64,000 nucleotides of DNA. Origin: Deltaproteobacteria bacterium. Lineage in GTDB: Bacteria; Myxococcota; Kuafuiibacteriia; Kuafuiibacteriales; Kuafuiibacteriaceae. Made by a program: the position numbers and the translations under genes. How positions within the stretch are numbered: the first letter of the stretch is position 1; each line of letters begins with the position of its first letter. The notes beneath the pieces were generated by a model. That model was not told the DNA's origin and made no database searches. It saw nothing but the letters and a program-made list of their open reading frames with translations. Shown here piece after piece: positions 9,818 to 53,983 of this stretch. Location: the NCBI GenBank assembly GCA_040218735.1, contig JAVJQW010000006.1, forward strand, positions 128,001 through 192,000. The letters are read 5' to 3'.

Positions 9818-10372
9818 GTGCTTCGCGTTGGGGTGATAGGGCTGATGCTCACGCTCTGCTCGTGTGTGTCGGGCGCCGGCACCGCGGCGAAGCCGACGGC
9901 GCTCGAACGACAACTCCTCGGCGCGTACGAAGAGCTCGACGACTCCCTCGCATCGGTCGCGTCCGTACGTGCAGAGAATGCACCTGCAGGTCGCTCCTTC
10001 ACGCAGATGGAAGCGCTCGCGATCGACGCTCGGGCCACCCAGCGTTTCAACGCGGACGACCTCGCCGAGCTGAAGGACGCGGGCTGTATCGCGGAGACGC
10101 GCGCCGCGAAGGTGATCGTTCGCGACTGCTCCATCGCGAGCGAGGGGGCCGTGCAGCGGAGGTTGGGGCGCGTCGTCGAGGAGGAGAACCGAGCCCGCCG
10201 CGACATCGTGACGTGGGCGGCGTACGCGTTCGCGCGGCGCGACGGACGCCCGAGCCCGTCCGCCGAAGAGGTCGAAGCGCTGCGTCAGGCCTACCGACGC
10301 CTCCAGTACGAATCCGCGCGCGCGGGGCACGTCATCGAGGACGAGGCCGGTGCGTTCGTCCGAGTGAAATAA
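9818..10372 (+). CDS. DUF1318/YdbL-like lipoprotein
   Basis: Lipobox LCSC; 'ELKDAGCIAE...VVEEENRARR...ARAGHVIEDEAG.FVRVK' resembles the DUF1318 pattern; stop directly abuts next start. Confidence 0.65.
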   Translation: MLRVGVIGLMLTLCSCVSGAGTAAKPTALERQLLGAYEELDDSLASVASVRAENAPAGRSFTQMEALAIDARATQRFNADDLAELKDAGCIAETRAAKVIVRDCSIASEGAVQRRLGRVVEEENRARRDIVTWAAYAFARRDGRPSPSAEEVEALRQAYRRLQYESARAGHVIEDEAGAFVRVK

Positions 10373-38116: not shown

Positions 38117-38167
38117 GGCCGCTCCGGCCCCTTGACCGAAGCCTCTGTCGGCCGGACGGTCGCGGGC

Positions 38168-38611
38168 GTGACCCACCGCGCTCTGTCGATCCTCTCGCCG
38201 TTCTTCGTCGCGTGCGCGACGACGCCCGCGCCCGCTCCGCGGCCCGACTTCGATGCGGCCCTCGCCGAGCACGTTCGGACGATCCGCGAGCGCGACCTCG
38301 CCGGCTACGAACGCACGCTCACCGAGCGTGAGTCCTTCTCGATCATCTTCCCGAACGGACACCGGACCACGAAGCGCGCGGAGGCGATTGCGTTTCACCG
38401 CGAGTGGTTCGCGGACACCGCCTGGCAGATGAGCTTCGAAGAGGCGGAACGCATCGACGGCGGAGACAGCATGGTCGTCGTCTTCCGCACGGCCTACCGC
38501 GACGCGCCCGACGGGGAGGACCGCGAGGGGTGGCTGACGCTCGTGTTCGCGGTGGAGGGGGGCGCGTGGCGCCTCGTTCACGATCAGAACACACGCATTG
38601 CGCCGAAGTGA
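38168..38611 (+). CDS. NTF2/SnoaL-like (DUF4440/DUF3225-type) lipoprotein
   Basis: Lipobox FVAC; C-terminal TLVF....G.WRLVHDQNT. Confidence 0.7.
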   Translation: MTHRALSILSPFFVACATTPAPAPRPDFDAALAEHVRTIRERDLAGYERTLTERESFSIIFPNGHRTTKRAEAIAFHREWFADTAWQMSFEEAERIDGGDSMVVVFRTAYRDAPDGEDREGWLTLVFAVEGGAWRLVHDQNTRIAPK

Positions 38612-38642
38612 GCCCCGGCGACCCTCGCGGACCGCCGGGGCT
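38611..38642. terminator. Hairpin between convergent genes
   Basis: AGCCCCGGCG/CGCCGGGGCT 10-bp inverted repeat. Confidence 0.55.
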
Positions 38643-38656
38643 TCGACGAATCGACC

Positions 38657-41600
38657 TCAGAGCGGGAGCTTGAAGTCGTCCTTGCCGCTGACCTCCTGGA
38701 TCGTCGGCTCGAGCAGGCTCTTCAGGAACTTCTTCGTCGACGCATCCTCGTACAGCGACTTGATCCCGAACGCCTGCGGCGCGTCCGCCATCGACAGCTC
38801 GTCGATCTTCCCGGAGACGGCGTGCACGTACCCGTACAGGCTCTTGGCATCGTAGGGCCCCACGGCCACGGCGATCGCGTCGGCGAACGTCTTGTCCTCG
38901 GGGTTGATGATGCGTTTGAGCTGACCGAGCGCGGTCTCGCCGAGCTTGTCGATGCCGCCCGAGTTGAGCGCGCCGAGGAGGCCCATCGTCTTCGAGAACG
39001 CGAAGCCGAAGTCGAAGTCGACGTCGGGGTCGCCTTGCCCGAAGGTGAGGGTCACCGCCCAGATCTTCAGCGTGAAGCCCTGCTCGGGGTTCATCGCCGT
39101 CTTGACCGCGGAGGTCGCGACGCCGCCGAAGATCTCGTTGGCGAGTTTGATCCCCGCGTCCGGGCTCGTGCTCACCGTGGCGACGAACCCGGCGATGAAC
39201 CCACCGAGGAACGACAACACGAGTTTGCCCGCGTCGCGCTCACCCTCCGCGTAACTCATCGCCAAACTCATTGCGCCTCCGTACACCGCGGTCTGCGCGA
39301 TCGCGGTGGTACTCACGCCGAACACCGTCGGTCCGAGCACCGCCGCGGCCAGCACCCCGGCGGCGTAGGCCGCGACCGCCACCGCGACACCGATCATCGC
39401 GCCGGCGACGGCCGCCGCTGCGTTGAAGTCGTCGAACGCGTTGGCGGGGTCCGTGAAGATCTTCCCCTCCGTGCCCGCGACGAGGAAACCGACGACCCCC
39501 GCGACGAGCACGGTGATTGCGATGATCGCTCCGACGAAGCGCCCCGACGGATCCTGGAAGGTCACCGGGTTGTTGCTGCCGAACGCGTACCGGTTGTGCG
39601 GGACGGCCTGCATCGGGTCGGAGCCGATCGAACGGTCCGCGCTGATGAAGCGCCCGAGGTCCGCGTCGTAGTAGCGCGCCTGCATGAACATCAGGTCCGT
39701 GGTGCGGTCCAGCTCGTGCCCGCCGAACTTCGGCCGGAACTCATCCGTGCCGGAGCTCGACGCGTGAATCTCGCCGTACGGCGTGTAGTTCACGTGCGCG
39801 CTCTTGTTCCCGCTCTCGTCGGTGACCACCGTGGTGGAGCCGACCTGGTCCTGGTGCAGATAGCGCACGCCCACCGCGGGCTCACCCACGCCGTGGGCGC
39901 CCGGCGACATCGCCGCCGAAGCCGAGCCCGAGCCGTGCGTCACGAAGAACACCGCTGCGACCGCCGCCGCGAGCGCGGGGCTGAAGCGCGGACGACCGTA
40001 CAGCTTCATGTCACGGCGACGACGGCGTAGGCCGACGAGCAGCAACAGGCACAGCACCGCGGGGAGCGCCACGGTGGTCACGCGCCACGCGGTACGACCC
40101 GCCGGCGACGTCACGTACGCGAGCGCCGTGTGCCACGCGACGCGCGGACCGCCCGAGAGCGTCGCCGGATCGAACATCGCGGCGAGCATCTCGTGCTGAC
40201 GCGACTCGAACTGCTCGACGAGCATCACCTCGGTGCGGGTGATCTGCGCGACGCGACCGGACGGCCCCTGCAGGTACTTCGTGTGCCGCGTCGGCCCCGA
40301 CGCGGGGACCGTGACCTCGTAGTCACTGCCGACGTAGTAGGTCGTGCTGCCTGTGGCCTCGACCTTCTTGAGCCGGTGCCCGTCCTGGTCGTAGACGAAG
40401 CTCGTCGCCTGACCGTTCTTGACGACCTGCACGAGGAGGTCCTCTTCGTTCCAGGTGTACGTCCACTGGTCGGTGCCTCGCGTCTTCTGCGTGAGGTTGC
40501 CGTTCGCGTCGTAGCTCATCGCGGTGCCGTCGCTGCGGCTCGTCGGTCGGTGACCGCCGAGCGCGTACTGGTACGTCTCCGTGATGAGGTTGTTCTCCGT
40601 CCGCTCGAGGAAGCTCCCGCCCGAGGAGTACACGTAGCTCCGAAGCCCGTAGGGACCCTCGGCGAACGCGAGCTCGCCGCGCGGCGTGTACTCGAAGTTC
40701 TGCGAGTCGGAGCCGAGCTGGTCGGTGATCTTCGTGATCTGATCGACGTCGTCCCACGCGTAGGTGAGGTCGAGCAGCGCGTTCTCACCTTCCTCCTCCT
40801 CCGCGCACGGGTCGGAGGGGACACCGCTGGGGTGCGCCGTCAGACGGTGCCTCGACATCCGCGCGGTGACGACGTCGAAGTCGTAACAAGCCACGACGTC
40901 GTTGCCGAACGTCACCTGACCCACGCGACCGGATGCGTCGTAGTCCTCGTAGACCGCGTAGGGCGTGAACACGCCGTCCGCGTCGCCCGGCTCCCACAGC
41001 GCGATCTCCTCGAGGAACCGCGCCGAGTCGAACCCGTAGCGCGCGATCGAGCCGTCCGGGAAGCTCCGCTCCACGACGTTCCCCATCGCGTCGTGCCGCG
41101 TGCTCCACGTGTACGCGACACCGTCGATCGTGAGCTGCGCGGCCGACTGCCGACCGTAGGCGTCGTAGCTCGTGGCGTAGGTGTGGTCCGGTCCGACGAC
41201 CGACGTCAGCCGGCCCAACCCATTGGTCAGTGAAGAATCGTCGTAGCCGTAGCTGATCGTCCGCGCCGTCGCCGCGTTGGGCGCGAGGAACGACTTGGTC
41301 AGCGTCCGCCCCAGCGCGTCGTACGTACGCGACGCCTGGTTGCCGTTGGCGTCCGTCTCCAGCGACAGCTGTCCGAAGACGTCGTAGTCGAAGTGCGTCG
41401 TCCCGGTGTCGGTGTCCGCGACGGACCGCTTCCGGCCGATGGTGTCGTACGTCGTGGTGGTGGTCGCGTCCGGGCTCGTCACCGACGTCAGTCGGCCGAG
41501 CGGGTCGTACGCGTAGGTCGTCGTCGCGAACGTCGCGTCGACCTTCTTCACGAGGTTGTCGCGGAAGTCGACGTGGACGGTCGTCACCGACTGGTTCGGC

Positions 41601-44600
41601 TCCGTACGCGTCATGACCATCGCGTGCGTCGAGGTGTCGTAGTCCGTGTACGCCGTCTCGATGCGACGCCCGTCGTGCAGGACGAACGCGGTCGGACGTG
41701 ACTTCACGTCGTACTCACTCTCCACCCAGCGCGGAACGGAACCCTCGAAGTAGGGCTCGGTGGTCCTCAGGACGAGCGTGTCGCGGAAGTACTCGCGGTC
41801 GCGAACGATCGCGCTGCTGCCGATGCCGCGGCGACGCTCGCGGACGACTCGTCCCTGCACGTCGGTCCACGTCTCCGTCCAGTCCCACTCCTCCGGGCCG
41901 ACGTGGTCGCGGAGGTTCCAGGTCTGCGTGACGAGGCCGAGGAACTCATCCTCGACGGGGTGTGTGTAGACGAACCTTCGGAACGGGGCCGCGTTGCCGT
42001 TTTCGTCGGGACCGAGGATCTCCAGCGGACGACCGAACGCGTCGAGCTCGATGGTCACGGTGTTGCCGCTGACGTCCGACCGCTCGACCTCGAGCGCGAA
42101 GCGCGGATCGACCCGCTTCACGATCTTCTGGCCGATCGCGTTGATGATGAGCGCGAGGTGACCGAAGCCGTCGTACTCGTACTCGGTGGTGCCGAGGGGG
42201 GACGTGGCGGAGGTGACCAGGCCGCGAGCGTCGTAGGTCTTCTCCTGGCCGAGCCACTGCTGGTGGGTGTCGTCCCACGAACCCTCGAAGAGCACGTTCA
42301 TGCGCGAGGGGAGGTCGTAGGTGACCTTGCGGTGGCTCAACGGGACGTTCGGGTTGCCCTGGTGAATCTTCACCTCGTACGGGTAGCCGATTCGCCAGGC
42401 GCTGAGATCGTTGTGATAGAGCGTGTCGGTGATCAGCAGCGCCGATGGGTTCGCGGAGTCCGGCGTGTCGGACATCTGCACGGGGTTGCCGAACGTGTCG
42501 TAGCTGAACGAACGCACCGCGCTGATGCACGCGTTCTGGCTGCCGAGGATGTACTCACACCGGTTCTGCGACGCGAGCCCCACCCGGTGAAGGTTCGGGT
42601 CCGCGAAGGACGGGTGCTGAACGTCGACGTACGTGAAGTCGATCTGCGCGAGGTCGACGCCGTTGCGGTCGAGGTGCTGGGAGGACGCAAAGCCCGCGAA
42701 CGGGTGGTCCTGGCGGTAGGTCGTCGTCAGCGTGGTGCCGTCGGCACGATCCACGGTGACTTCACCGAAGCCGAGGAACCCGTGCCCGGCGAGGTGTGAG
42801 CGCGCCTGCGCGTACGCGTAACGATCCGAGGTGAGTTTGTCCTTGGCGTCGTTCTTCTCTGCCTTACGGACCACGAACAACGGCATGGTGACTTCGCGCT
42901 CGGGGTAGATGGCGCCGCTGCCCGGCGTGTAGACGTCCGAGCGGGTGAGCGGCGCGTACTCGACTTCGAAGCGACCGTAGAGGCCGTCGAGGAACTGTGT
43001 CGCGAGGCCGGTCTTGTACGACTTCGTCCAGTAGAAGTACGACGGGTCGCCGCTCAGCTGGTCGGTGCGCATGAAGATGCCGGTCATGCCCTCCAGGCCG
43101 TTGTCGATCGCGAGGTAGTCGTCCTGCGGATCCTTCGGGATCGTCTCCTGCCAGACGTAACCGAGCCCATCGCTCAGGTGGATCTGGATGTCCGACGTCT
43201 CGTGCGAAGGATCCCACCGGCGGTTGAAACCGGTGACGAGGTCGGTGCGACCGTCGTCCGTGATGTTCGCGGGGCTCAGGCGGTGACGCCAGTCGATGCC
43301 GCCGACGGTGTAACCCCAGTCGCGGAAGTACCAGTTGTTCGGCGCGAGGTCGATCTGCACCTGGTAGGTCTGCGTGAGGCGCGGCGTGAGCGTGCGCCCG
43401 TTGCCGAAGAAGATGAGCAAGTTCTCTTGCAGGTCGGACTGCGCCTGGCTGGGCGGCGCCGTGTTGCCCTTGCGCGCCGAGCCGACGACGAGCGCGTCGG
43501 AGCGCCCGTCGCCGTTCACGTCGGAGGCGAGGATCTCGTAGAACGGATGCGGCCAGACGTCCGCCCAGTCCTTGGTCAACGTGCCCGACTGGGACGCGAC
43601 GAGGAGCGTGATGCGCGAGTGTCCGCCGTACTGCGGGTCCGAGCCGCCCGAGGCGTGGAACGGGAAGCGGACCAGGAAGTCGACGCGCCCGTCGCCCGTG
43701 AAGTCACCCGGGGTGAAGACGGGACCGTAATACTTCTCGTAGTCGAGGAGCATCGGAATAGCCGGCGCGGGCGGGACGTCGTCGAGCGTCCCCGTCTGGT
43801 GGAGGGTGAAGCCCGTCGGGGTGGTCAAAAACACGCGGAAGTCGAACATCAGCGCGAAGTCACCCGTCTCGGTGAGCTCGCGGTTCTTGATGGCGAGGAC
43901 GTCTGCGCGTGCGTCGCCGTCGATGTCACCGATGTGAATGGTGTCCGCGAGGGAGATCTCGCCGCCGGTCTGTGCCGGCGTGTTCGAGAGGCCGTTCTCC
44001 GCAGAGCCGAGGAAGATCTCGTAGCCACCCGCGTTGTCGATCAGCGGGTGCTTGAGCCAGATGAGATCCGTACAGCCGTCGGCGTTGAAGTCACCCGCGT
44101 GGAAGCGCGGGCCCCAGTCCTGCGGGTTGCCGAAGGTGTCTTCGTAGTTTCCTGCGTTGACCGAGAACGGCTTGACCACGCGCAGGTTCGCGCTCTGGGG
44201 GGAGGTGACGATCTGGTAGTCCGCGACCGGGTAGACGAAGTCCTGGCGGCCGTCGCAGTTGAAGTCACCCGAAGCGCCTTCGCCGTAGAGTGATGGCGAG
44301 CGAATCCCGAACTGCGGGTCGAGCGCGGAGTGATACTCCGAGAACGAAAACATCGACGTCGCGTTGGCGTCGAGGTCCGACCAACTCACCAGCGTCGGCG
44401 GGTAACAAACCGCGCCGGAGCACTCCTTTACACGATCGACGAAGAGTTGATCGCGGAGGTTCAGCGGACCGGTTTGGAACTCATAGTGTTTGACCTCGTC
44501 GAAGTTGGGCCCGTCCTTGACGTAGGTGCGGATGTGCTCGAGGGCCTTGTCTCGCACGATGCGGGCGCCACCCACGTAGCGGTTGTGGCGCTCGGTGTGG

Positions 44601-45544
44601 GTCGTGTACTCGAACTCGACGACGCGATCGAACGGGACCTGCTGGTCGTCGTTCGAGCCGTACTCGATACGGACCGGGGCACAGTATGTCGTCCCGATGT
44701 CCTGGTAGAAGACGCGCATCACGTTGCCGTGGACGTCGGTGAGCTTGGTGAGCGGCCAGTCGAGGCGCGGAGCCTTCTGCCCCTCGACGGAGTCGACCAG
44801 CGCGTTGCAGCTCGACATCTCTTCGAGGCCGCCGAACTCCGCGGTCGAGCCGTTCTTGAGCTCCGCCTGGAAGGTGCACGGGCCCGAGAAGGTCGCCTCG
44901 GCGCCGGTGTTCTGGTCCCACGGCTGCCCCTCCTCGGCGGAGGACGCGGGGAGCTTCACCGTCGCGCGACAGCTGCCTGTGCTCTCGAAGCGGCTCCAGG
45001 TCTGCATCTCGGTCAGGTAATTCGTGCCCGGCTCGCCGTAGTCGCCCGAGATGGCGAGGAGGCGGAGGCCGCCGGTGCAGAATCGGTCGTCGTCGTCGAG
45101 GCGGACCGCGCCCACCGCGCCGTCGTGCACCTTCGTGCGGGCGCAGCGCTCGACCCTCGGGAGGCCGGCGAGCGTGAAGCCGACGCCGAGGGCGCTGTCA
45201 CCGGCCTGGCTGTTGTAGGTCGCGGCGAGCTTCGGCTCGATTCCGCCGATGCCCGGGGGCACCTCGATCGGGATTGCGTAGGTTGCAGCGCCGGTCGCGT
45301 TCACGTCGAACGCGGCTTCGATGCGGCCGACCGCGTACGGTGACTCGGGGACGGGTTCACCGCCCTCCGGTCCCGAGGGGGGTTCGGGTGGGTCTCTCGG
45401 AGGGGGCGGTGGCGGTCTGCCGGGCTCGCTCCCCGGCGGTGGGGTGCGCGCTTCGTCACGCGCGACGCCGTTGAGCTCGTCGCTCGAGCAGCCCGCGATG
45501 ACGAGCGCGATGGTGAGAAGGTGAGTTGGGAATCGAATGTTCAT
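38657..45544 (-). CDS. Lipoprotein SpvB/FG-GAP/YD-repeat RHS protein (TcB-TcC-like fusion) with hydrophobic C-terminal domain
   Basis: Lipobox IAGC; SpvB-like 'TGAATYAIPIEVPPG'; six GD(F/I/V)xxDGxxD-type repeats; GFLGFG; YD repeats; RHS core ARYYD..LGRFISAD...NNPVTFQDPSG. Confidence 0.9.
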   Translation of the reverse strand: MNIRFPTHLLTIALVIAGCSSDELNGVARDEARTPPPGSEPGRPPPPPPRDPPEPPSGPEGGEPVPESPYAVGRIEAAFDVNATGAATYAIPIEVPPGIGGIEPKLAATYNSQAGDSALGVGFTLAGLPRVERCARTKVHDGAVGAVRLDDDDRFCTGGLRLLAISGDYGEPGTNYLTEMQTWSRFESTGSCRATVKLPASSAEEGQPWDQNTGAEATFSGPCTFQAELKNGSTAEFGGLEEMSSCNALVDSVEGQKAPRLDWPLTKLTDVHGNVMRVFYQDIGTTYCAPVRIEYGSNDDQQVPFDRVVEFEYTTHTERHNRYVGGARIVRDKALEHIRTYVKDGPNFDEVKHYEFQTGPLNLRDQLFVDRVKECSGAVCYPPTLVSWSDLDANATSMFSFSEYHSALDPQFGIRSPSLYGEGASGDFNCDGRQDFVYPVADYQIVTSPQSANLRVVKPFSVNAGNYEDTFGNPQDWGPRFHAGDFNADGCTDLIWLKHPLIDNAGGYEIFLGSAENGLSNTPAQTGGEISLADTIHIGDIDGDARADVLAIKNRELTETGDFALMFDFRVFLTTPTGFTLHQTGTLDDVPPAPAIPMLLDYEKYYGPVFTPGDFTGDGRVDFLVRFPFHASGGSDPQYGGHSRITLLVASQSGTLTKDWADVWPHPFYEILASDVNGDGRSDALVVGSARKGNTAPPSQAQSDLQENLLIFFGNGRTLTPRLTQTYQVQIDLAPNNWYFRDWGYTVGGIDWRHRLSPANITDDGRTDLVTGFNRRWDPSHETSDIQIHLSDGLGYVWQETIPKDPQDDYLAIDNGLEGMTGIFMRTDQLSGDPSYFYWTKSYKTGLATQFLDGLYGRFEVEYAPLTRSDVYTPGSGAIYPEREVTMPLFVVRKAEKNDAKDKLTSDRYAYAQARSHLAGHGFLGFGEVTVDRADGTTLTTTYRQDHPFAGFASSQHLDRNGVDLAQIDFTYVDVQHPSFADPNLHRVGLASQNRCEYILGSQNACISAVRSFSYDTFGNPVQMSDTPDSANPSALLITDTLYHNDLSAWRIGYPYEVKIHQGNPNVPLSHRKVTYDLPSRMNVLFEGSWDDTHQQWLGQEKTYDARGLVTSATSPLGTTEYEYDGFGHLALIINAIGQKIVKRVDPRFALEVERSDVSGNTVTIELDAFGRPLEILGPDENGNAAPFRRFVYTHPVEDEFLGLVTQTWNLRDHVGPEEWDWTETWTDVQGRVVRERRRGIGSSAIVRDREYFRDTLVLRTTEPYFEGSVPRWVESEYDVKSRPTAFVLHDGRRIETAYTDYDTSTHAMVMTRTEPNQSVTTVHVDFRDNLVKKVDATFATTTYAYDPLGRLTSVTSPDATTTTTYDTIGRKRSVADTDTGTTHFDYDVFGQLSLETDANGNQASRTYDALGRTLTKSFLAPNAATARTISYGYDDSSLTNGLGRLTSVVGPDHTYATSYDAYGRQSAAQLTIDGVAYTWSTRHDAMGNVVERSFPDGSIARYGFDSARFLEEIALWEPGDADGVFTPYAVYEDYDASGRVGQVTFGNDVVACYDFDVVTARMSRHRLTAHPSGVPSDPCAEEEEGENALLDLTYAWDDVDQITKITDQLGSDSQNFEYTPRGELAFAEGPYGLRSYVYSSGGSFLERTENNLITETYQYALGGHRPTSRSDGTAMSYDANGNLTQKTRGTDQWTYTWNEEDLLVQVVKNGQATSFVYDQDGHRLKKVEATGSTTYYVGSDYEVTVPASGPTRHTKYLQGPSGRVAQITRTEVMLVEQFESRQHEMLAAMFDPATLSGGPRVAWHTALAYVTSPAGRTAWRVTTVALPAVLCLLLLVGLRRRRRDMKLYGRPRFSPALAAAVAAVFFVTHGSGSASAAMSPGAHGVGEPAVGVRYLHQDQVGSTTVVTDESGNKSAHVNYTPYGEIHASSSGTDEFRPKFGGHELDRTTDLMFMQARYYDADLGRFISADRSIGSDPMQAVPHNRYAFGSNNPVTFQDPSGRFVGAIIAITVLVAGVVGFLVAGTEGKIFTDPANAFDDFNAAAAVAGAMIGVAVAVAAYAAGVLAAAVLGPTVFGVSTTAIAQTAVYGGAMSLAMSYAEGERDAGKLVLSFLGGFIAGFVATVSTSPDAGIKLANEIFGGVATSAVKTAMNPEQGFTLKIWAVTLTFGQGDPDVDFDFGFAFSKTMGLLGALNSGGIDKLGETALGQLKRIINPEDKTFADAIAVAVGPYDAKSLYGYVHAVSGKIDELSMADAPQAFGIKSLYEDASTKKFLKSLLEPTIQEVSGKDDFKLPL

Positions 45545-45553
45545 GCCTGCGAA

Positions 45554-45579
45554 TAGCCAAAAGCTCCGCAGGATTTTTT
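45554..45579 (-). promoter_or_regulatory. Candidate ECF promoter AAAAAA-N14-TGGCTA upstream of RHS gene
   Basis: Same motif and spacing as at 51985-52012; ends 9 nt before the RHS ATG; no SD visible. Confidence 0.5.
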
Positions 45580-45587
45580 GATGAGTT

Positions 45588-46223
45588 TCAGTCGCCGAGG
45601 AACGCGCGCGTCAACTCACGGATTTTGTGCTGCCAGTTGTAGACGACCTGAACCTTTACACCCATGAGACGAGCGACTTCGTTCGGTGAGCGGCCGTCGG
45701 TATAGGCGTGCCGAAACACGAGCTGACCTCGCGTCGGGAGAGCCTCTTGAAGATGCGCGCTGAGGCGCGCCGCGAGGTCGCGAGCGAGGAGCCCCTCCTC
45801 CGGCGATGGGTTCGGTGTCGTCATCGAGTCCAACGCGTCGGAGCCGAGCGCTCTAAGGTGACCGCCGCGTTTCTGCGCGGCGGCCCGCGTCCTCAGGCGC
45901 GTGATCTCGCGCTCCGCGACGAGGCCGACGTAGCGCTCCAGCGACAGTCCGCGATCGGGATCCCACGCGCGCAGTCGTTCGCCGCCGCGACCGACGAGCA
46001 CGAGCCAGACCTCCTGGATCATGTCGTCCACGGTGTCCGGGATCTTCTGACGAGGGTCCCGCGCGCGCGCGCGCCGCGCACGCGCGCGCACGACGGGGAG
46101 CAGCCGGGCGACGAGCTCGTCGCCCGCGGCTGCGTCCCCCGCCAACGCCTGGCGGACGAGGAGCTGATCGTGCTCGACGACCTCGGCCTCGAGCCCGGCC
46201 GGTCTGGCGGTTTCGGTGCTCAT
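45588..46223 (-). CDS. ECF-family sigma-70 factor
   Basis: Region 2 'ALAGD..A.DELV..LLPVV...DDMIQEVWLVL'; region 4 HTH 'SPNEVARLMGVKVQVVYNWQHK'. Confidence 0.88.
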   Translation of the reverse strand: MSTETARPAGLEAEVVEHDQLLVRQALAGDAAAGDELVARLLPVVRARARRARARDPRQKIPDTVDDMIQEVWLVLVGRGGERLRAWDPDRGLSLERYVGLVAEREITRLRTRAAAQKRGGHLRALGSDALDSMTTPNPSPEEGLLARDLAARLSAHLQEALPTRGQLVFRHAYTDGRSPNEVARLMGVKVQVVYNWQHKIRELTRAFLGD

Positions 46224-46233
46224 GGCTGTTCGC

Positions 46234-48534
46234 TCAGTGGTGCAGGTCGATGGCCGAGAAGTCCGTTACGGTCTTGGCGTCGGGCTCGGTGATGTTCACG
46301 ACGAGTCCTGCCTTCACGTCATCGAGGTTGCTGAAGTCGATGCTCGAGCCGTTGAGGTCCACCTCGATGTCGAGGTGGTTGCCGAGCACCCAGTCGACGT
46401 CGGGGGAGGCCGGCAGCGCGATGTACTCCTCCGTCAGCTTGCCGTTCACGAGGGGCGGCCCGTTGAGGACGAGGTAGGGGTTGTCGATCGCCGTCTTCGG
46501 ATCGCCGTCGGCGGTGAGCTCCAGCGACATGACGATCTTCCCCGGCTCGAACTGCGCGGGGCAGTCGGGGCACAGTGGAACGATCGGCTGCGGACCCAGC
46601 GAGCCGATCGCGGTGCGCTCCGGGTGGCTCTCGAAGGGGCACTGCGCACCGCAGGCGGCCACGTCCTGCCAGGGGGCGGTGGCCGCCGCGTCGCCGCAGA
46701 CGATGCGCCCCGAAGTGTAGCTCGGGTTCCACGTGATGGGGCCGGGGCGCGACGGCGTGGTGCAGTCCGGCGCAAAGCCACACGCCTGCACCTCGGCGGC
46801 ACACGCGGCGAGCGTGCCGGCGGGGATGGGCTCGGTACCGACGATGTTCTGCGCGCAGGTGACCAGCGCCGGACAGCTCCGCAGCGCGTGGTCGAGGCGG
46901 TCGACGGCGAGCATGCGAACCGGGACGCCGGCGGCGGTCGGACGGCAGAGGTCACGCCCCGTCAGGTAGAGCACGCGGGCCAGCGCGAGGCGCGTCAGCG
47001 GCGCGTCGCCTTGCATGAGCCGCTGGTGTTGGGCGCGGGCGGCGGCGCCAGCAACGAGCGCGGCGCTCACGGAGCTCCCGGTGAATGCGCGGGGGAGGGC
47101 GTCGAGGTAGTCGTTCGTCCCGCCCGCGCCGCAGAGCGGATCCTTGGGCATCCCGTGGGCGGCCGAGTTGGCGGCGTAGACGTGTTGGCCCGGCGCGACG
47201 AGCGGCGGCTCTGCGCCGGGGATCGCGACACCCGTGGCGCGCAAGCGTTCGTCGACGGCGCCGACCGCGATCGCCGCGTGGGTGATCGTCGGATCGTTCA
47301 CGCGGCAGGTCGCTTCCTGGCTCCACTGCCCGGGGTAGTACAGCGCCGGGGTGTTCGGCGTCGCGCCACACGTCACGTGGAGGACGTTCGCCGGCGGCGT
47401 CGGGAACGTGCCGGCCGGGACGCGGACGGCGCGGTTGCCGGACGCGGCGCTGACGAAGACCGGACGCTGTCCGTCGCGATCCATCCGCGCGGCGACGTCG
47501 AGCATGTAACGAATGACTTCGCCGGCTGCGTTCTCGTGGCTGGTGCACGAACCTCCGACGCCGCTGATGCCCGCCGGCTGCGCGAGCTCGGGCGGGAAGC
47601 CGAGGCTCATCTGCAGGACGAGCGGGCGCGGCGGGCTGGTGTTCGTCCCGCCAAAGAGCGCGGCGTCGATGCCGATCGCGACGTCGGCCATCGTGCCCTG
47701 ACCGCCGGCGTCCAGCACCGCGATGTCCGTCATGCGGAGGCTGGGGCCGACCTGCCGCGCGAACGTCGCCATCCCGCGCCCGTGGACGTGGTGGTTCGTT
47801 CGGTTCGGGTGAAGGTCCGTCACCGAGGTGACGCCGAGGGAAGCGTGCAACGCCGCGCCGACGCCGGCGTCGATCAGCGCGAGGTCGACGAGCTCTTCGC
47901 TCGACGCCGGCGGCGATACGCCTTCGCTGGCGGGGAGGCCGATGTCCGTGAGGTGCCACGTCAGCATGTCGTGGGTGGGGACCGCCTGGGCGCTCGCGAC
48001 CGAGGCGTCACACTCGCGGCCGACGTAGAACTCGTCGTCGGCGAGGAGGCCGTTGCGGTCCGCGATCGTGCTTCGGATCTCTTCGACGGCGTCACACTGC
48101 CAGTCCGGCTGCACGGAGAGCGTCCCGGAGTTGTCCGAGAACCGAACGCGAAGGAAGCGGAGGTGGCCGTCGGCGCGCGCCGCCGGCCAGGCGCGCGCGG
48201 GCAGCACCGACTCGATCGCGACCGCGACCGGGCCGTTGAGACACGAGGGCTGATTCGGCGGGCAGAACCACTGGCTCGCGTGGCTGGCCAGGTAGCCCTC
48301 GAGGTCCGCGTTGCTCTGCGCGAGGAACGCGAGGTCTGGCCACACGTTGGCGAGGCCGACGGGGATCTCGACGAAGAAGCTGTCGGCCCGACAGGGGCGC
48401 GCCGCGGTGCGAACGCGCGAGGGTCGGGTGCGGGCGGAGTCGATCGTCTGGTCTCGTTGTTCTGGCGCCGGGGATGAGCAGGCGAGGGCGGCCAACGTGG
48501 CGGCCATCAGGGTGCGCTCGCGCGAAGTCTTCAT
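46234..48534 (-). CDS. S8 (subtilase) family serine protease, lipoprotein
   Basis: Lipobox ALAC; triad motifs LALIDAG, HGRGMA, TGSSVSAALVAG; oxyanion AASGN; many Cys; ATGA overlap with upstream gene. Confidence 0.8.
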   Translation of the reverse strand: MKTSRERTLMAATLAALACSSPAPEQRDQTIDSARTRPSRVRTAARPCRADSFFVEIPVGLANVWPDLAFLAQSNADLEGYLASHASQWFCPPNQPSCLNGPVAVAIESVLPARAWPAARADGHLRFLRVRFSDNSGTLSVQPDWQCDAVEEIRSTIADRNGLLADDEFYVGRECDASVASAQAVPTHDMLTWHLTDIGLPASEGVSPPASSEELVDLALIDAGVGAALHASLGVTSVTDLHPNRTNHHVHGRGMATFARQVGPSLRMTDIAVLDAGGQGTMADVAIGIDAALFGGTNTSPPRPLVLQMSLGFPPELAQPAGISGVGGSCTSHENAAGEVIRYMLDVAARMDRDGQRPVFVSAASGNRAVRVPAGTFPTPPANVLHVTCGATPNTPALYYPGQWSQEATCRVNDPTITHAAIAVGAVDERLRATGVAIPGAEPPLVAPGQHVYAANSAAHGMPKDPLCGAGGTNDYLDALPRAFTGSSVSAALVAGAAARAQHQRLMQGDAPLTRLALARVLYLTGRDLCRPTAAGVPVRMLAVDRLDHALRSCPALVTCAQNIVGTEPIPAGTLAACAAEVQACGFAPDCTTPSRPGPITWNPSYTSGRIVCGDAAATAPWQDVAACGAQCPFESHPERTAIGSLGPQPIVPLCPDCPAQFEPGKIVMSLELTADGDPKTAIDNPYLVLNGPPLVNGKLTEEYIALPASPDVDWVLGNHLDIEVDLNGSSIDFSNLDDVKAGLVVNITEPDAKTVTDFSAIDLHH

Positions 48535-49295
48535 GGGGTCTCCTCCTTGGGGGCTCGAGCTCGATAATCGAGTCGTGAGGTCAGCCACTGGTGTGGGCCG
48601 ATGGTGAGTGCATCGCGGGCACCGGAGTACGCCGCGGCGGCTTCGCCCTCGGGCGTGAGGGCGAAGTGGATGGTGCGTGTGCCGAAGTCGCGTCCGAGGA
48701 GCGCCTCGGCGTCGGCTTCGTAGCGGACGATGCCGGTCGCGCCGACGTCGTACGCGGGGTTCGCGATCTCGACGAGCTGTTCGGGCGCGCCGACGGGCGA
48801 GACGAACACCCGCAGCTGGACGGGAGCGTTCGGGGCCGTCGACGGTCGGAGCAACCAGCGGACGCGGCTCGTCGGCACGAAGACGTCACCGGGCGCCTCG
48901 TCGCCCCGCATCTGGACGACACCACCCAGCGGCGCGTTGAGCGCGTAGCTCGGGAGCGCGGACGTCGTGTCGGGCCGCGGCAAGAAGACGAAGAGCAGGG
49001 CGGCCGCCGCCACGGCGATCGTCGCGACCGCCGGCCAGCGTCGTGACCGTCTCTGCTTCAACGCCCCCTTGGCGAAGTCCGACAGCTCCGACGACACCGG
49101 CTCGCCGTAGTCCGAAGCCAGCGCGCGACACTCCGCGCACGTCGCGAGGTGCGCCTCGATCGGCTCGCGGCGGTCGTCGTCGACGCGGCCGCGCGCGTAG
49201 GCGACGAGGTCGCGGTCGTCGAGGTGCTCACCGTCGGTTTCGACGTCCGGAATCTCGCGCAGCATTCGATCGATCTCCTCGTCCTCGCGGCTCAC
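48531..49295 (-). CDS. zf-HC2 anti-sigma factor with TM and extracytoplasmic domain
   Basis: EAHLATCAECR (HxxxCxxC), single TM, beta-rich C-terminal domain; GTGA overlap with CHAT stop. Confidence 0.85.
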   Translation of the reverse strand: MSREDEEIDRMLREIPDVETDGEHLDDRDLVAYARGRVDDDRREPIEAHLATCAECRALASDYGEPVSSELSDFAKGALKQRRSRRWPAVATIAVAAAALLFVFLPRPDTTSALPSYALNAPLGGVVQMRGDEAPGDVFVPTSRVRWLLRPSTAPNAPVQLRVFVSPVGAPEQLVEIANPAYDVGATGIVRYEADAEALLGRDFGTRTIHFALTPEGEAAAAYSGARDALTIGPHQWLTSRLDYRARAPKEETP

Positions 49296-51943
49296 CGCCG
49301 GCCCCCCAACACGTAGAACGCGGACCAGGTGTCGTCGTTGGACGCCAGCGCCGCGCGTCGGAACGCATCGATGGGGGTCCTCGCACCCCCCGCGCCGTAG
49401 AAGCGCTCGACGAACGCGGCTGCGTCGTCGTCCGAGACGCGGCGGGTCGTCGCGACGACGGTTCGTGAGCCGCTCGCGATGAAGGCATCGGGGAGGCCGA
49501 TACGAATCGTCCGACCGAGCCGTCCGCTGCGCCCGGTCTCACATCCGCTGAGGACGACGCGCCGCGCGCGGGGGCGTCGCGCGAAGAGGTCCTCCACCGT
49601 GAGGCGCTCGTCGTTCGCCAACACGAGGTGTGCGTCCCAAGGGGTGGCGGCGTCGAGGACGCCGTGTCCGGCGAAGTGGAAGTGCGACGTGTTGGCGACT
49701 GCGTCCAGGACGCGCGCGCGCGTGGCGTCGCGTCCGAGGAGGAGCGCAGACGCTTCGAGGCGCTCTCCTACGCGCTCCGCCTCGCGGCGCGCGACGGGGA
49801 GGTTCGAAGCCGTGTCGCCGACGACGACGGCTGGGCCCGTGCCTTCCTCGGATTCGAGGACCAGCAGGCTGGGGAACGGGACGAACGCGATCGCGGTGGC
49901 GTCGAGCCAGCGCTTCGCTTCTGCACGGGTGCCGAGGACGCTCCACGGATCGTCGGCACCCATCGTCGCGACGAACAGGGTTCCGTTCTTTGCGTCCCAC
50001 CAGGGCGCGGTCGGTCGCGCGGTGAAGCGGCGGATCGTTCCGCGCGTGACGCCGAACCACACGGGGGTGTCGCCGTCTTCAAAGGGTACGAGCAGCGCGT
50101 CGTTCGAGCTCAGCGAAGCCTGGATGGGTTCGACGCTGTCGAGCGCCGTCGAGCCGAACGTGTTCTCGACGAACGCAAACGCGGCGTCGAAGACCTCCTC
50201 CAGCGCCTGGCGCTTCTTCGCGGTCTCAGCCCGAAACGCGGGGAGGTCCTTCGGGGCGACGAGCTCCTCCTCGCGGTTTCGTTTCTCGAGCGCCGCGCGT
50301 TGCTCGTCGTAGCGGTCGAGGCCGGCGCGCCACTTCAGGCGGTCCTCTTCGTCGAGGCTGTCGAGCATCGCGCGTCCGTAGAGCACGCGGTAGGTCTGCG
50401 CGCGCGAACGGTCGGCCGCGAGCACGGCGAGGTCGTTGCGGTCGTTCGCGGCGAAGGCCTCGACGGCGTCGGCGAAGAGCTGCCGTCGGTCGTCGATGAA
50501 CGTCGCGCGGTCCTTGGCGATCTCGGTTCGGCGCGTCACGGCTTCGAGGTGGTTCATCGCCTCGATGAAGTGCGCCGCCGACCGTTGGGGCTGCGCCCGC
50601 GCGAGGCCGTAGTGGGCGCGCCAGGTGAGGTCCGATGCGCGGCCTGCCGATTCGCGCGTCGCCCGCTCGAGCGCGCTCTCGTACGCACGGGCCGCGTCGT
50701 CGCTGCGCCCGTCGGCCAACGCGAGGTGACCGCGCATCAGGCGCGTGAGGACGACGACATCCTCGGGGAGGGAGGCGTCGGCCTCCATCGAAGCCAGGAG
50801 CGTTCGTGCGCCCGCGAGGTCGCCGCCTTGATAGCGCGCGTAGAGGAGGTTCGTCGCGGGGATGTAGGCGAGGTCTCGGCGCCCGGCGCTAACAAGAATG
50901 TCGCGAGCTCGCGCGAGCTCGCCTTGCACGCGGTTCCAGTCACGCTCGAACGCGCCCGCCGCCATGCCGCGGGAGAGCACCCAGCCGCGGTCGGCCGCGT
51001 ACGAGCCCTGTTCCGTTACCGAAGCGCCTTCGACCCAACGCTCCGCGCGCTGTAGCAGCGACCACGCTTCTTCGAAGCGCCCGACCTCCGCCAAAGCGAG
51101 GTAACGTGCAGCGACGACGTACCGAAGCGGTTCGACCAAGGCCGCCGCATCCGCGATCTCGATCGCCGCCTGCGTGACCTGGAGCGCCTGTCGGTACTGC
51201 CCCAGCTCCGCGAGCACCTGCCCGCGGTAATACGCAGCGAGCACGATCCCCACCTCGTCGCCGATCGCCTCCGAGCCCGCCGTCGCTCGGTCGAGCAACG
51301 CCAACGCCTCCGGGAACCGCCGCTCACGCAGTCGGTAGTACGCGAGCGTGCGCAGCGCGCGGTAACGCTCGCTCTGCCCTTCCCGTGCGGCGGCTTCCGC
51401 CCAGACCTCGATCGCCGCGTCGGTGTCCTCGGGTCGAACGCGTTGAACGAGCTTCACGCGGAGCTCGTTTGCTTCGACGCGGAGCATCCCCTCGAGCGCG
51501 CCGACGGTGTCGAGTCGAGCTTCGAGCTTCGCGAGCGCGGCAGGCGCGTCGGTCTCCATCAACGCCCACTCCTCGGCGAGCTCGGGCCACTGGCGGGACT
51601 CGGGGACCTTCTGCACCGACCACCGCTTCGCGCCGACGCTCAGCGTTCCGCTCTCGGTGATCGGCGCGAAGTACACCAGCACCCGCCCCGCGCGCGCCGC
51701 GGTGGCGGTCACGGAGAGGGGTTGCTCGCCGAGCCTCGCCGCGACGGGCACGTACGGGGCGGCCATCGAGACGTACGGCGCGTGGGCGTCGTCGAAGACG
51801 TGGGTGACCGCGCCCGCCCGCGCGCTCAGGATGCGCGCGCCGTGAAGCCGCAGATCGGCGGCCACCGGCTTCGCCGATTCCTCCGTACGCGGACACGCAA
51901 CTGCACACACCAACACGAGAATCCAGGCTCCTGAGCGGACCAC
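49292..51943 (-). CDS. TPR-CHAT caspase-family protease, predicted lipoprotein
   Basis: Lipobox CAVAC; TPR-like helices; HFHFAGHG and VVLSGCETG dyad; WSAFYVLG end; start GTG 51943 (alternative TTG 51949). Confidence 0.88.
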   Translation of the reverse strand: MVRSGAWILVLVCAVACPRTEESAKPVAADLRLHGARILSARAGAVTHVFDDAHAPYVSMAAPYVPVAARLGEQPLSVTATAARAGRVLVYFAPITESGTLSVGAKRWSVQKVPESRQWPELAEEWALMETDAPAALAKLEARLDTVGALEGMLRVEANELRVKLVQRVRPEDTDAAIEVWAEAAAREGQSERYRALRTLAYYRLRERRFPEALALLDRATAGSEAIGDEVGIVLAAYYRGQVLAELGQYRQALQVTQAAIEIADAAALVEPLRYVVAARYLALAEVGRFEEAWSLLQRAERWVEGASVTEQGSYAADRGWVLSRGMAAGAFERDWNRVQGELARARDILVSAGRRDLAYIPATNLLYARYQGGDLAGARTLLASMEADASLPEDVVVLTRLMRGHLALADGRSDDAARAYESALERATRESAGRASDLTWRAHYGLARAQPQRSAAHFIEAMNHLEAVTRRTEIAKDRATFIDDRRQLFADAVEAFAANDRNDLAVLAADRSRAQTYRVLYGRAMLDSLDEEDRLKWRAGLDRYDEQRAALEKRNREEELVAPKDLPAFRAETAKKRQALEEVFDAAFAFVENTFGSTALDSVEPIQASLSSNDALLVPFEDGDTPVWFGVTRGTIRRFTARPTAPWWDAKNGTLFVATMGADDPWSVLGTRAEAKRWLDATAIAFVPFPSLLVLESEEGTGPAVVVGDTASNLPVARREAERVGERLEASALLLGRDATRARVLDAVANTSHFHFAGHGVLDAATPWDAHLVLANDERLTVEDLFARRPRARRVVLSGCETGRSGRLGRTIRIGLPDAFIASGSRTVVATTRRVSDDDAAAFVERFYGAGGARTPIDAFRRAALASNDDTWSAFYVLGGRR

Positions 51944-51984
51944 CTCCAACCCGTGAGGGTGCAGGTTGCCTGCCAACCCCTTCC

Positions 51985-52012
51985 TAACCATTTCGGCGAA
52001 TCGCTTTTTTTT
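51985..52012 (-). promoter_or_regulatory. Candidate ECF promoter AAAAAA-N14-TGGTTA upstream of CHAT operon
   Basis: Same motif and spacing as at 45554-45579. Confidence 0.5.
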
Positions 52013-52102
52013 CCCGCCCCACATTTTCTCGCTAAGAGCGAGATACCCCGGTTGAGTGGCAGAATCTGCAAGAGTTCTGCGCTCGAGCGAGCGCAGGGGC
52101 GC

Positions 52103-53983
52103 CTACGACCCAAGGAGCGCCGTCTGGAGCTCGTGCGCGAGCCGCTCCTTGGAGAACGGCTTGGGGATGACGTGCACGGATGGGTCGAGCTTGCTCGCGT
52201 GCGTAAGTGTCTCGCTGGCGTATCCTGACATCAGCGCGACGGGGAGGTCGGGCCAGCGCTCGGCGATGCGTTGTTTGAGCTTGAGGCCGTCGACGCCGCG
52301 GGGGAGCACGACGTCGGTCAGGACCACGTCGAACCGCGCGGACTGGGGCGGCGTGCGTTCGAGGAGCTCGAGCGCTTCGATCCCGTCGCTGACCTCTTCG
52401 ACGCGGTAGCCGAGGCGCTCGATCAGCCGTCGAATCATGCGACGGACGGTCGGGTCGTCCTCGACGAGGAGGACACGCTCACCCTTGGGCATCGCCTCGA
52501 CCTCGACCCGCGGGAGCGCGACGTCGGAGTCCTCCACGCAGCGCGGGAAGTGAATGCGCACAGTCGTCCCGCGTCCGGCCTGGCTGTCGATCGCGACGAA
52601 CCCGCCGGACTGCTTCACGAACCCGTACACGGTACTCAGCCCGAGCCCGGTGCCGCCGTCTCCCTTCGTCGTGAAGAACGGCTCGATCGCTCGCTCGAGC
52701 ACCTCGGCCGTCATCCCCGCGCCATCGTCCGCGACCTCCAGGAGGATCCACTGGCCGAGCGGGAGCGACGGGTGCAGCGCGTCGAGGACGGGGACGTTTT
52801 GCGTGCGGATGTGCAGCGTGCCGGTCTCTTGAGTCATCGCGTCGCGTGCGTTGATCGCGACGTTGAGGAGCGCGCTCTGGAGCTGCCCCGTGTCGATGCG
52901 GCACTTCCACAGCGACGGGTCGAGATCGATCTCGACCTTCACCTGTTCGCCGAGCGTCCGCGTGAGGATCGTGCGCTCCTCCTCCACGAGTCGATTGATG
53001 TCGCACTTCGTCGGCGTGAGCGATTGGCGACGCGCGAACGCGAGGAGGTGGCGCGTAAGATCGGCCGCGCGCTGACTGGCGTCGCGGATCTGTTGCGCGG
53101 CGTCGGCCACGTCCTCGGGGTCGTTCGCGGCCGGATCGAGCATCTCGACCGCGGAGAGGATGATCATGAGGAGGTTGTTGAAGTCGTGCGCGATCCCGCC
53201 GGTGAGTTTGCCGAGCGCGTCCATCTTCTGAAGCTGGTGAAGTTGCTCCACGAGCTGAGTGCGTTCGCGTTCGATGCGTCGCGCCTGGGTGATGTCGGTC
53301 GATACGAGGGTGACCCGATCCACGGAGCTGCCGTGCATGATCGGACCGAGGCGCGTGGAGTAGAGGCGCTCGTCGGCGCCGAACCCGATGAACATCTCGT
53401 AGGCGGCGGGGGTGCCGGTCGCGAAGACGCCATCGATCGCGTCGCGCACCATCCGGACCTGATCCGGTCGAGCGTAGTCCAGGACGGACACGCCGATGAG
53501 GCTCTGCGGAGAGACGCCGGAGTGCGTGCGGCTGATGAAGCGGATGCGGTAGTCGCGGTCGACGACCGTGAAGATGTCCGGCGCGTTCGACAGCATCGCG
53601 CCGAGGAGGCGTTGGGTCGCATCGCGTTCGGCTTCGACGCGCTCGGTCTTCGTGACGTCGATACTGATGAAGCAGAACAGACGCCGAGCGCCACGCTCGT
53701 TAGGCACGGCGAACACCCAGTTGTGGTACGTCGCCCGCGGAGTCTCGCGCCCGACCGCTTCCGACTCGAAGAACTGCGGCGCCCCCATGGTCTGGGCGTT
53801 GTCGACGGTCGCTCGAAGGCGTTCGTGGTAGTCGGGGTCGATGTACTCCAACAAGGAGCGCCCCTCGACACCGACGCCGTCCCGATTCAAGAACACGATG
53901 TCGAAGTTCTCGTCGACGTACGCGATGAACTCCGGAGCGCGCATGACCTGCGCACGCCAGTCCTCATCGTTCAACCAGTCCAC
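52103..53983 (-). CDS. PAS-PAS hybrid sensor histidine kinase/receiver
   Basis: Two PAS domains; GGIAHDFNNLL H-box; N, G1 (DDGAGM), F (EPFFTTK), G2 (GTGLGL) boxes; receiver LLVEDD...LTDVVLP...KPF. Confidence 0.93.
   Translation of the reverse strand: MDWLNDEDWRAQVMRAPEFIAYVDENFDIVFLNRDGVGVEGRSLLEYIDPDYHERLRATVDNAQTMGAPQFFESEAVGRETPRATYHNWVFAVPNERGARRLFCFISIDVTKTERVEAERDATQRLLGAMLSNAPDIFTVVDRDYRIRFISRTHSGVSPQSLIGVSVLDYARPDQVRMVRDAIDGVFATGTPAAYEMFIGFGADERLYSTRLGPIMHGSSVDRVTLVSTDITQARRIERERTQLVEQLHQLQKMDALGKLTGGIAHDFNNLLMIILSAVEMLDPAANDPEDVADAAQQIRDASQRAADLTRHLLAFARRQSLTPTKCDINRLVEEERTILTRTLGEQVKVEIDLDPSLWKCRIDTGQLQSALLNVAINARDAMTQETGTLHIRTQNVPVLDALHPSLPLGQWILLEVADDGAGMTAEVLERAIEPFFTTKGDGGTGLGLSTVYGFVKQSGGFVAIDSQAGRGTTVRIHFPRCVEDSDVALPRVEVEAMPKGERVLLVEDDPTVRRMIRRLIERLGYRVEEVSDGIEALELLERTPPQSARFDVVLTDVVLPRGVDGLKLKQRIAERWPDLPVALMSGYASETLTHASKLDPSVHVIPKPFSKERLAHELQTALLGS

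Follow-up and report, generated by a model that had tools for sequence, protein, structure and literature searches.

How a caspase-like CHAT domain in the periplasm frees a sigma factor of the extracytoplasmic function (ECF) class is still open for the DdvA/DdvS system of Myxococcus xanthus, in which a transmembrane anti-sigma factor is described as fused to a periplasmic TPR-CHAT region (PMC11506125; see also PMC6061681; PDB 8rot/8rw5). The same question is raised by five genes in a 64-kb window (the whole stretch of DNA that was analysed, 64,000 nt), which is part of contig C54 in an 11.6-Mb genome of the phylum Myxococcota (70 contigs, ~68% G+C). These genes encode a TPR-CHAT lipoprotein, a single-pass anti-sigma factor, an exported pro-subtilase of family S8, a sigma factor of the ECF class, and a large RHS protein. 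We find that the first four form a conserved unit, to which the RHS gene does not belong, and that this module is a split form of the kind known from DdvA/DdvS. Gene anatomy, conservation, catalytic residues, a shared promoter motif and a predicted contact between two of the products are what the analysis shows. We suggest, with a little more confidence than doubt, that the four genes constitute one trans-envelope switch, in which the CHAT protein would make the site-1 cut, an M50 protease would make the site-2 cut, and the freed sigma factor would drive the module together with local cargo. The features of the locus, in window coordinates, are as follows (aa, amino acids).

49292-52024, minus strand: caspase-like lipoprotein of TPR-CHAT type, 910 aa if read from the first ATG (Pfam CHAT 1.1e-26, TPR_12)
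48531-49295, minus strand: single-pass anti-sigma factor (zf-HC2 5.8e-7; HLATCAEC motif; transmembrane segment; Ig-like ectodomain)
46234-48534, minus strand: exported pro-subtilase (S8), 766 aa (Peptidase_S8 3.5e-7, above the Pfam cut-off)
45588-46223, minus strand: ECF sigma factor, 211 aa (TIGR02937 5.6e-15, 55.3 bits against a cut-off of 42.9)
45545-45587, minus strand: 43-nt gap between the sigma and RHS genes; it holds an A6 tract, followed after 16 nt by CTA, and a weak hairpin immediately ahead of the RHS ATG
38657-45544, minus strand: RHS / Tc-BC-like lipoprotein, 2295 aa (SpvB, FG-GAP, TcdB_midN, RHS repeats, Rhs core)
51982-52013, minus strand: site resembling the promoters of the module family, within the 5' end of the CHAT frame as annotated (10.9 bits)

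A conserved four-gene unit

The five long frames lie head to tail and have a coding-like third-position G+C, and open reading frame (ORF) and Pfam/TIGRFAM scans bear out the sequence-only reading of this DNA, which had described five co-oriented genes with these domains. Direct reading of the junctions agreed with the overlaps and spacings it gave: the CHAT and anti-sigma genes overlap by GTGA, the anti-sigma and S8 genes overlap by ATGA with the Shine-Dalgarno sequence AAGGAGGA upstream, the sigma gene starts 10 nt after the S8 stop, and 43 nt separate it from the RHS gene. Translational coupling of the CHAT, anti-sigma and S8 genes is also found in paralogous cassettes. The 5' end that the same reading placed at 52012 had to be given up, as no start codon lies there and the first ATG of the CHAT frame is at 52024. 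The true start is probably TTG at 51949 or GTG at 51943, either of which would give a short lipoprotein signal, because the promoter-like site at 51982-52013 sits within the N-terminus read from ATG 52024. The Pfam matches of the sigma factor to Sigma70_r2 and r4_2 are weak, and it had no match in the PDB at E up to 0.001.

A tblastn search of the genome with the five proteins returned three further CHAT/anti-sigma/S8/ECF sets in the same order, on contigs C61, C59 and C17; the paralogous cassettes are thus four in all, and the other three have differing neighbours, with no adjoining RHS gene. When Myxococcota were surveyed with a profile of the four S8 paralogues (E up to 1e-20, two candidates per genome scored), the S8 subfamily was found in 12 of 401 sampled genomes; the window's family accounts for seven of these (of 19 sampled) and a second family for four (of 172). 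We examined 17 genome loci, selected through their S8 match, and 12 carry the complete four-gene set, in at least four different gene orders; of the remaining loci, L036, L043 and L044 are cut by contig ends, L040 shows S8 and CHAT genes only, and L018 S8 alone. Pattern scans gave only three loci in genome contigs and two in metagenome contigs, one of the latter useful, so that the survey rests on the genome search and the stretches around its matches; the metagenome contig L073 likewise carries all four genes. Members of the window's family mostly keep the order CHAT, anti-sigma, S8, ECF, and in those of the second family S8 is transcribed divergently from an operon of anti-sigma, ECF and CHAT genes. 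In ORF clustering of the S8-chosen loci only these four families recur in at least eight loci, the next commonest being a Ser/Thr kinase and a short-chain dehydrogenase (four loci each), and the other flanking genes are unrelated housekeeping or assorted genes. Our main argument that the four genes work together is that their linkage has outlasted the rearrangement of their order. The recurrence check envisaged by the sequence-only reading therefore came out in favour of the four regulatory genes, and did not extend to the RHS gene as a recurrent neighbour.

The wider family was explored in nine further ECF-CHAT neighbourhoods of the same genome. Five of them (C50, C67, C58, C64 and the 5' part of C54) hold complete modules composed of an ECF sigma factor, a single-pass membrane protein of 227-255 aa, a CHAT protein and an S8 protease of a different subfamily, ~640-660 aa long. 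On C23 (L070:3965-7135) the ECF gene is followed by a gene for a 1056-aa fused protein and then by a 406-aa S8 gene. The N-terminus of the fused protein is like the zinc-type N-terminus of the window anti-sigma factor, one transmembrane segment follows, and the remainder is like the window TPR-CHAT protein, its TPR-CHAT region being 41% identical to the window's CHAT domain; judged by this domain order, it is a DdvA-type fusion standing beside split forms in one genome. A second locus on C17 (L072, G000:C17:215000-226000) has ECF, single-pass protein and CHAT genes, with a trypsin-like protease (Trypsin_2) in the place of S8, and no S8 gene was found in the stretches examined on C42 and C56. 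In total, the genome holds at least ten modules, that is, the four paralogous cassettes and at least six of other subfamilies, and it has 21 CHAT-domain genes.

The two proteases and the predicted contact

The anti-sigma factor has one hydrophobic segment, at residues 86-108, and matches ChrR in the PDB (1.6e-5). Among ten homologues HxxxCxxC is present in eight and a single transmembrane segment in all. The structure model (predicted local distance difference test, pLDDT, 80) has a helical N-terminal domain and an Ig-like beta-sandwich at 115-245, whose fold matches to V-set domains are generic; the transmembrane segment and outer domain named in the sequence-only reading are therefore both recovered. 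Directly outside the membrane lies a conserved stretch (117-131; Y117...G124 G125...R130 G131), and the residues G124, G125, R130 and G131 of its GG-x4-RG loop (124-131) are invariant or nearly so in the homologue alignment. The vicinity of R130-G131 is a candidate cut site.

One pair was modelled as a complex, namely the CHAT protein (residues 51-910) and the anti-sigma factor (106-245), for each of which a small alignment was supplied. The interaction prediction score from aligned errors (ipSAE), which expresses the model's own confidence and was obtained here from small custom alignments, was 0.64 (0.62, 0.65 and 0.64 in the individual runs), against 0.00 for the best of three controls; in calibration, the mark applied to this score was reached by 58 of 80 solved complexes and by 2 of 110 mismatched pairs. 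The runs share at least 98% of their contacts, and the pLDDT of the partner is at least 82. The confident interface places CHAT 785-789 and 826-829, the stretches of the catalytic dyad, against anti-sigma 124-132, the conserved loop, and many interface residues are conserved on both sides. The structure-model check that had been proposed thus gave, for its CHAT and anti-sigma part, a predicted direct contact at the dyad, and this contact is what an enzyme-substrate complex, or equally a shielding complex, would look like.

Both proteases appear to be intact, as had been read from the letters. All 11 CHAT homologues compared keep His787 and Cys828, and the CHAT profile's best sequence match in the PDB is 8rot_B (991 aa, 'CHAT domain-containing protein', 1.9e-9), which we take to be DdvA. 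In the S8 protease Asp222, His251, Asn367 and Ser488, whose order is that of the subtilase triad with the oxyanion Asn, are invariant in 12 of 12 homologues, as are 13 cysteines. The S8 model (pLDDT 70) comprises a prodomain at ~48-178 with a beta-alpha-beta-beta-alpha-beta order, a catalytic domain at ~216-560, and further C-terminal a poorly modelled Cys-rich linker followed by a beta-sandwich. The S8 protease is probably made as a zymogen, because its best fold matches are unprocessed pro-subtilases (3afg, 1.9e-13; 3whi) and PCSK9. The subfamily is small, counting 168 representatives (E up to 1e-30) in a set of 1.84 billion.

Export signals were called by regular expression and by eye, not by SignalP. 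Called in this way, lipobox-like Cys signals are present in the CHAT (AVAC), S8 (ALAC) and RHS (IAGC) proteins, which upholds the lipoboxes previously assigned to both proteases. A hydrophobic N-terminus ending in a lipobox-like Cys occurs in 9 of 11 CHAT homologues, the other two having uncertain start codons, and the N-termini of the S8 homologues resemble, by eye, lipoprotein or Sec signals. We count the extracytoplasmic character ascribed to the cassette as supported.

A shared promoter motif, the proposed switch and its alternatives

The motif AAAAG-N17/18-GTA, an A-tract ending in G followed by a GTA core, occurs at 16 sites, which lie upstream of module operons or of divergently transcribed S8 genes; 15 of them went into a weight matrix. 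Three module sites outside the training of the matrix scored 27.5 (L034), 20.7 (L038) and 16.2 bits (L033), and across both strands of the 11.6-Mb genome 105 sites reach at least 12 bits. Because the motif precedes modules, scores high outside training and is rare genome-wide, the module is very probably autoregulated. Two of the sites belong to neighbours of cassettes: an astacin/FG-GAP gene next to that on C17 has a 19.1-bit site (tied fifth) 79 nt upstream, and an M4-peptidase gene that diverges from the C61 cassette is preceded by a 16.9-bit site (12th best); as a rough chance estimate, six sites of at least 19.1 bits in 23.2 Mb correspond to ~0.02 in the 80 kb round the four cassettes. 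By the criterion of the motif, at least two paralogous loci therefore have a neighbouring exported-protease gene that bears the family promoter signal. Of the 18 top genome-wide sites that were checked, eight fall inside coding-like frames open upstream and five have no gene within 450 nt; since the matrix is noisy elsewhere in the genome, we trust only those sites that adjoin modules. Two other loci, L049 (G000:C54:109696, minus strand) and L060 (G000:C9:40241, plus strand), carry a nearly identical string, GAGAAAGAATC...GTAGGGCTCC, which may be the promoter of another sigma factor or a small repeated element.

In the window, the site upstream of the CHAT gene (10.9 bits) is the second-best minus-strand site in the 64 kb and has the A-tract and G at -35 with GTTAGG at -10. 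At the corresponding position the orthologue from the same genus reads AAAAAAAG-N18-CTA.

We suggest that these elements operate in the following way. At rest, the zinc-type N-terminal domain of the anti-sigma factor would hold the ECF sigma factor in the cytoplasm, while its Ig-like ectodomain and GG-x4-RG loop (124-131) would be offered to the periplasm, where the TPR-CHAT lipoprotein would dock on the ectodomain with the loop at the His787/Cys828 dyad. The CHAT protease would then be switched on by a signal in the periplasm, probably a protein that the TPR part senses, and would cut the anti-sigma factor outside the membrane (the site-1 cut). Next, an M50 protease of the RseP type, encoded at another place in this genome, which has M50 genes, would cut the transmembrane helix and thereby free the sigma factor. 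The latter would transcribe its own module from the AAAAG-N17/18-GTA promoter, resulting in positive feedback, and also nearby genes for exported enzymes or toxins. At this locus the neighbour would be the RHS gene, reached by read-through and/or from a degenerate promoter in the 43-nt gap, for which we see about an even chance. The subtilase, a zymogen co-regulated with the module, might serve as an amplifier, as a second cutter or as a partner of the CHAT protein.

Several points weigh against this proposal. Cleavage in this split-module family is inferred only, as are all proteolytic steps of the switch, its signal and the control of the RHS gene, and the score of the predicted complex is a model's confidence. 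For DdvA itself, mutants of the catalytic dyad are reported to behave as wild type, and no signal is known (PMC11506125). The site upstream of the CHAT gene departs from the consensus, with GTTAGG replacing the GTA core at -10; L035 and L040 have no good promoter site by the matrix; and the zinc ligands are missing in two of the ten anti-sigma homologues, both from the second family. Moreover, the complex prediction covered the CHAT/anti-sigma pair, and the S8 protease may be the true site-1 protease.

This last alternative, in which the TPR-CHAT protein would be a sensor or gate that either shields the anti-sigma loop or activates the pro-subtilase by cutting its prodomain, has a precedent for its shielding part in RseB, which shields RseA. 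The S8 gene is linked to the module as tightly as the CHAT gene, its product is a predicted zymogen with a prodomain, and the trypsin-like serine protease in the place of S8 at L072 suggests that a serine protease activity is the part that is needed. Docking of the CHAT protein over the conserved loop suits shielding as well as cutting, and the wild-type behaviour of the DdvA dyad mutants (PMC11506125) points in the same direction. However, the invariance of the CHAT dyad argues for catalysis and not for binding alone, the predicted contact places the loop at that very dyad, two ECF-CHAT loci (L065 and L069) have no S8 gene in the stretch examined, and the word 'subtilase' does not occur in the DdvA paper. 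We therefore consider a site-1 role of the subtilase unlikely, though not negligible. More improbable still is that both proteases are mere outputs, exported degradative enzymes under the control of the sigma factor, with general envelope proteases controlling the anti-sigma factor. The divergently placed S8 gene does have its own family-type promoter, and is thus at least a member of the regulon, and the motif-bearing neighbour genes likewise encode exported proteases (astacin and M4 peptidase). Yet the fused C23 paralogue and DdvA physically join CHAT to the anti-sigma factor, the predicted contact is specific and uses residues conserved on both sides, and paralogues repeat the translational coupling between the CHAT, anti-sigma and S8 genes. 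Site-1 cutting by the CHAT protein thus remains the reading that we prefer.

A separate question is whether the RHS gene is cargo of the switch. We rate the possibility that it is an unrelated neighbour, which came to lie beside the module in a single genus and has its own transcription, as somewhat short of an even chance. Outside the window, an RHS gene comes after the module in L043 alone, which is of the same genus (the L043 RHS protein is 74% identical over residues 1-1285), the 43-nt window gap scores -1.4 bits with the family matrix, and the flanks at other loci are the unrelated or assorted genes described above; both the score and the lack of recurrence count against control by the sigma factor. 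On the other side, the RHS gene is on the same strand as the module, only 43 nt away, and no terminator-like site was found ahead of it, in a scan that is uninformative (seven such sites in 38000-53000 against 5.9 expected). Furthermore, in L043 the orthologous gap carries ACGAAAAGGAC-N-GCCTACTG with the spacing of the family and scores 11.3 bits, and by eye the gap site mirrors the CHAT-upstream site in spacing and -10 type within each genome: both are A-tract, N16, TTA or CTA in the window, and A-tract-G, N18, CTA in the same-genus relative (G001). In addition, FG-GAP proteins adjoin three other modules, and of the seven genes in the genome with strong PF01839 matches (150 of 422 candidates scored) two lie beside modules. 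The sequence-only interpretation is therefore supported in part: the cassette and its linkage stand and a contact between the CHAT protein and the anti-sigma factor is predicted, the proposed two-protease cascade and the choice of the protease that cuts the anti-sigma factor stay conjectural, and the coupling to RHS, adjacent and co-oriented across a short gap as it is, proved weaker than claimed. In the window, the hairpin ahead of the RHS start codon falls short of significance (z -0.74). In L043 (3845-3925, minus strand) an 11-bp hairpin lies over the RHS start codon (-31.6 kcal/mol for 81 nt, z -2.86), and it may control translation.

The RHS protein itself has RHS_repeat (3.1e-29), FG-GAP (3.6e-13), SpvB (2e-6) and Rhs_assc_core (TIGR03696, 4.8e-19) matches and hydrophobic segments at 1999-2127. 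Like RHS/Tc BC-type toxins, it combines an SpvB N-terminus, an FG-GAP propeller, a TcdB mid region, an RHS/YD shell, an Rhs core and a variable C-terminal domain; unlike them, it carries a lipoprotein signal and an orphan C-terminus, and its gene directly follows an ECF sigma gene. By homology this C-terminal domain is an orphan, and it is strongly hydrophobic: a search among long proteins with the last 306 aa returned the protein itself alone, Pfam gave nothing and the Atlas gave weak, unnamed matches. No co-oriented immunity gene was seen after the RHS gene, nor a TcA-like gene. The minus-strand ORF 37691-38581 was considered as an immunity gene and rejected, as it has no family and fails the codon-composition filter, which overlapping plus-strand frames pass. 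A second sigma gene with a C-terminal SnoaL-like extension (37250-38116, plus strand; ECF56-like architecture) is followed by a gene for a DUF4440/SnoaL protein (38132-38611, plus strand), both converging on the RHS 3' end. Within the RHS shell, just before the core, at 39905-40093 (RHS residues ~1818-1880), a transmembrane-like segment is followed by RRRRR and a second, Met-initiated stretch like a signal peptide, which may have been left by a gene fusion or may mark an unusual membrane insertion.

Related systems and the surroundings of the locus

The idea of such a switch is less new than the sequence-only reading implied, because DdvA/DdvS and the ECF54 context are precedents that it missed. 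DdvA/DdvS shares with the window module the phylum, an ECF sigma factor with a single-pass zinc-type anti-sigma factor, and an extracytoplasmic TPR-CHAT region with a conserved His/Cys dyad; in its CHAT site the three-helix motif is reportedly missing, and dimer formation completes the site. For the fused protein, the DdvA paper proposes a CHAT site-1 cut ahead of RseP (PMC11506125). The window module differs in that the TPR-CHAT region, which in DdvA lies within the anti-sigma polypeptide, is encoded by a separate lipoprotein gene (fusion being found only in the C23 paralogue), that the anti-sigma factor has an Ig-like ectodomain of its own, that a pro-subtilase is an obligate neighbour, and that one genome carries the module in at least ten copies. 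Moreover, DdvA/DdvS controls a CBASS/CRISPR-Cas defence island, whereas no Cas or CBASS family was detected among the 37 window ORFs scanned.

A second precedent comes from Actinobacteria, where the ECF54 sigma factor is conserved beside a subtilase and a TPR-CHAT gene (Huang et al. 2015 via the PMC7826278 supplement; PMC8999054). Proteolytic regulation has been proposed for this group since 2015 and is described as yet untried (PMC7826278 supplement, PMC8999054). The group is given as 100% actinobacterial, without an anti-sigma factor and with a CarboxypepD_reg-domain protein at +1, and its predicted promoter as GTATCAG (-35) / CTCC (-10) (PMC7826278 supplement). The likeness to the window module is one of gene context, with subtilase and TPR-CHAT genes at most three positions from the sigma gene. 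The window module has a transmembrane zf-HC2 anti-sigma factor, gave no CarboxypepD_reg match at E up to 0.01, and belongs to a family whose promoter is AAAAG/GTA and not GTATCAG/CTCC.

In the type III-E craspase, Cas7-11/Csx29 (a TPR-CHAT protein) is associated with Csx30/Csx31/RpoE (PMC10028731), and there too a cut by a TPR-CHAT protease is thought to release an ECF-type sigma factor from its inhibitor. That system is cytoplasmic, RNA-guided and cas-linked, whereas the window module is exported and has a membrane anti-sigma factor. The absence of cas genes that had been remarked on was confirmed among the ORFs scanned, and no CRISPR-like array was found in the window; on both grounds we rejected a CRISPR link of the cassette. 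The regulated intramembrane proteolysis of the RseA/DegS/RseP type follows the same proposed logic, namely a periplasmic site-1 cut and then an M50 site-2 cut, but in the window the candidates for site 1, a caspase-like cysteine protease and/or a subtilase, are encoded in the operon itself. The animal SREBP site-1 protease is a subtilase.

Our literature searches found no paper on a split periplasmic CHAT/anti-sigma/S8/ECF module, most subscription journals lying outside their coverage. The interest of the split form is that it puts the protease, its presumed substrate and a second protease into three proteins, so that the DdvA hypothesis can be tested in trans; because it offers a predicted contact, a candidate cut site and a candidate promoter, the mechanism is approachable by ordinary co-expression, mutant and reporter work. 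It is tempting to go further and to see, in some soil bacteria, a large family of switches in which the CHAT lipoprotein cuts a separate Ig-domain anti-sigma factor at GG-x4-RG, the pro-subtilase is the second step of a cascade, and at least ten copies each arm a different exported weapon. Taken jointly, these propositions are rather doubtful, and the list of weapons that we would tentatively attach to them (RHS toxin, astacin, M4 peptidase and FG-GAP hydrolase) is equally so. Should this joint reading nevertheless prove true, the site-1 role, which was not demonstrable for DdvA, would be directly testable in trans, because enzyme and substrate are separate proteins. At least ten modules in 11.6 Mb, some beside exported-protease or RHS genes, hint at a large regulatory class, which may govern how predatory or social bacteria deploy their surface weapons.

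As regards the surroundings, a cluster of rpoB/rpoC and ribosomal-protein genes adjoins the window. At 54294-54465 lies a tandem repeat with a 24-nt G+C-rich unit in 4.5-6.6 copies, where there is no confident gene call. A hybrid histidine kinase with PAS and receiver domains (52103-53983, minus strand) is encoded on the same strand as the module and ends 78 nt upstream of the CHAT frame, and in L063 the orthologous CHAT gene is preceded by this neighbour too. A second, much longer CHAT protein is encoded at 10373-18745 (plus strand); its 2790 aa comprise PD40 repeats and numerous TPRs, with a CHAT domain at the C-terminus, and the 5' end of its gene is overlapped by a 778-aa Ser/Thr kinase gene (8519-10855, minus strand). 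Long CHAT-matching proteins, of 2587-2912 aa, are also carried by relatives.

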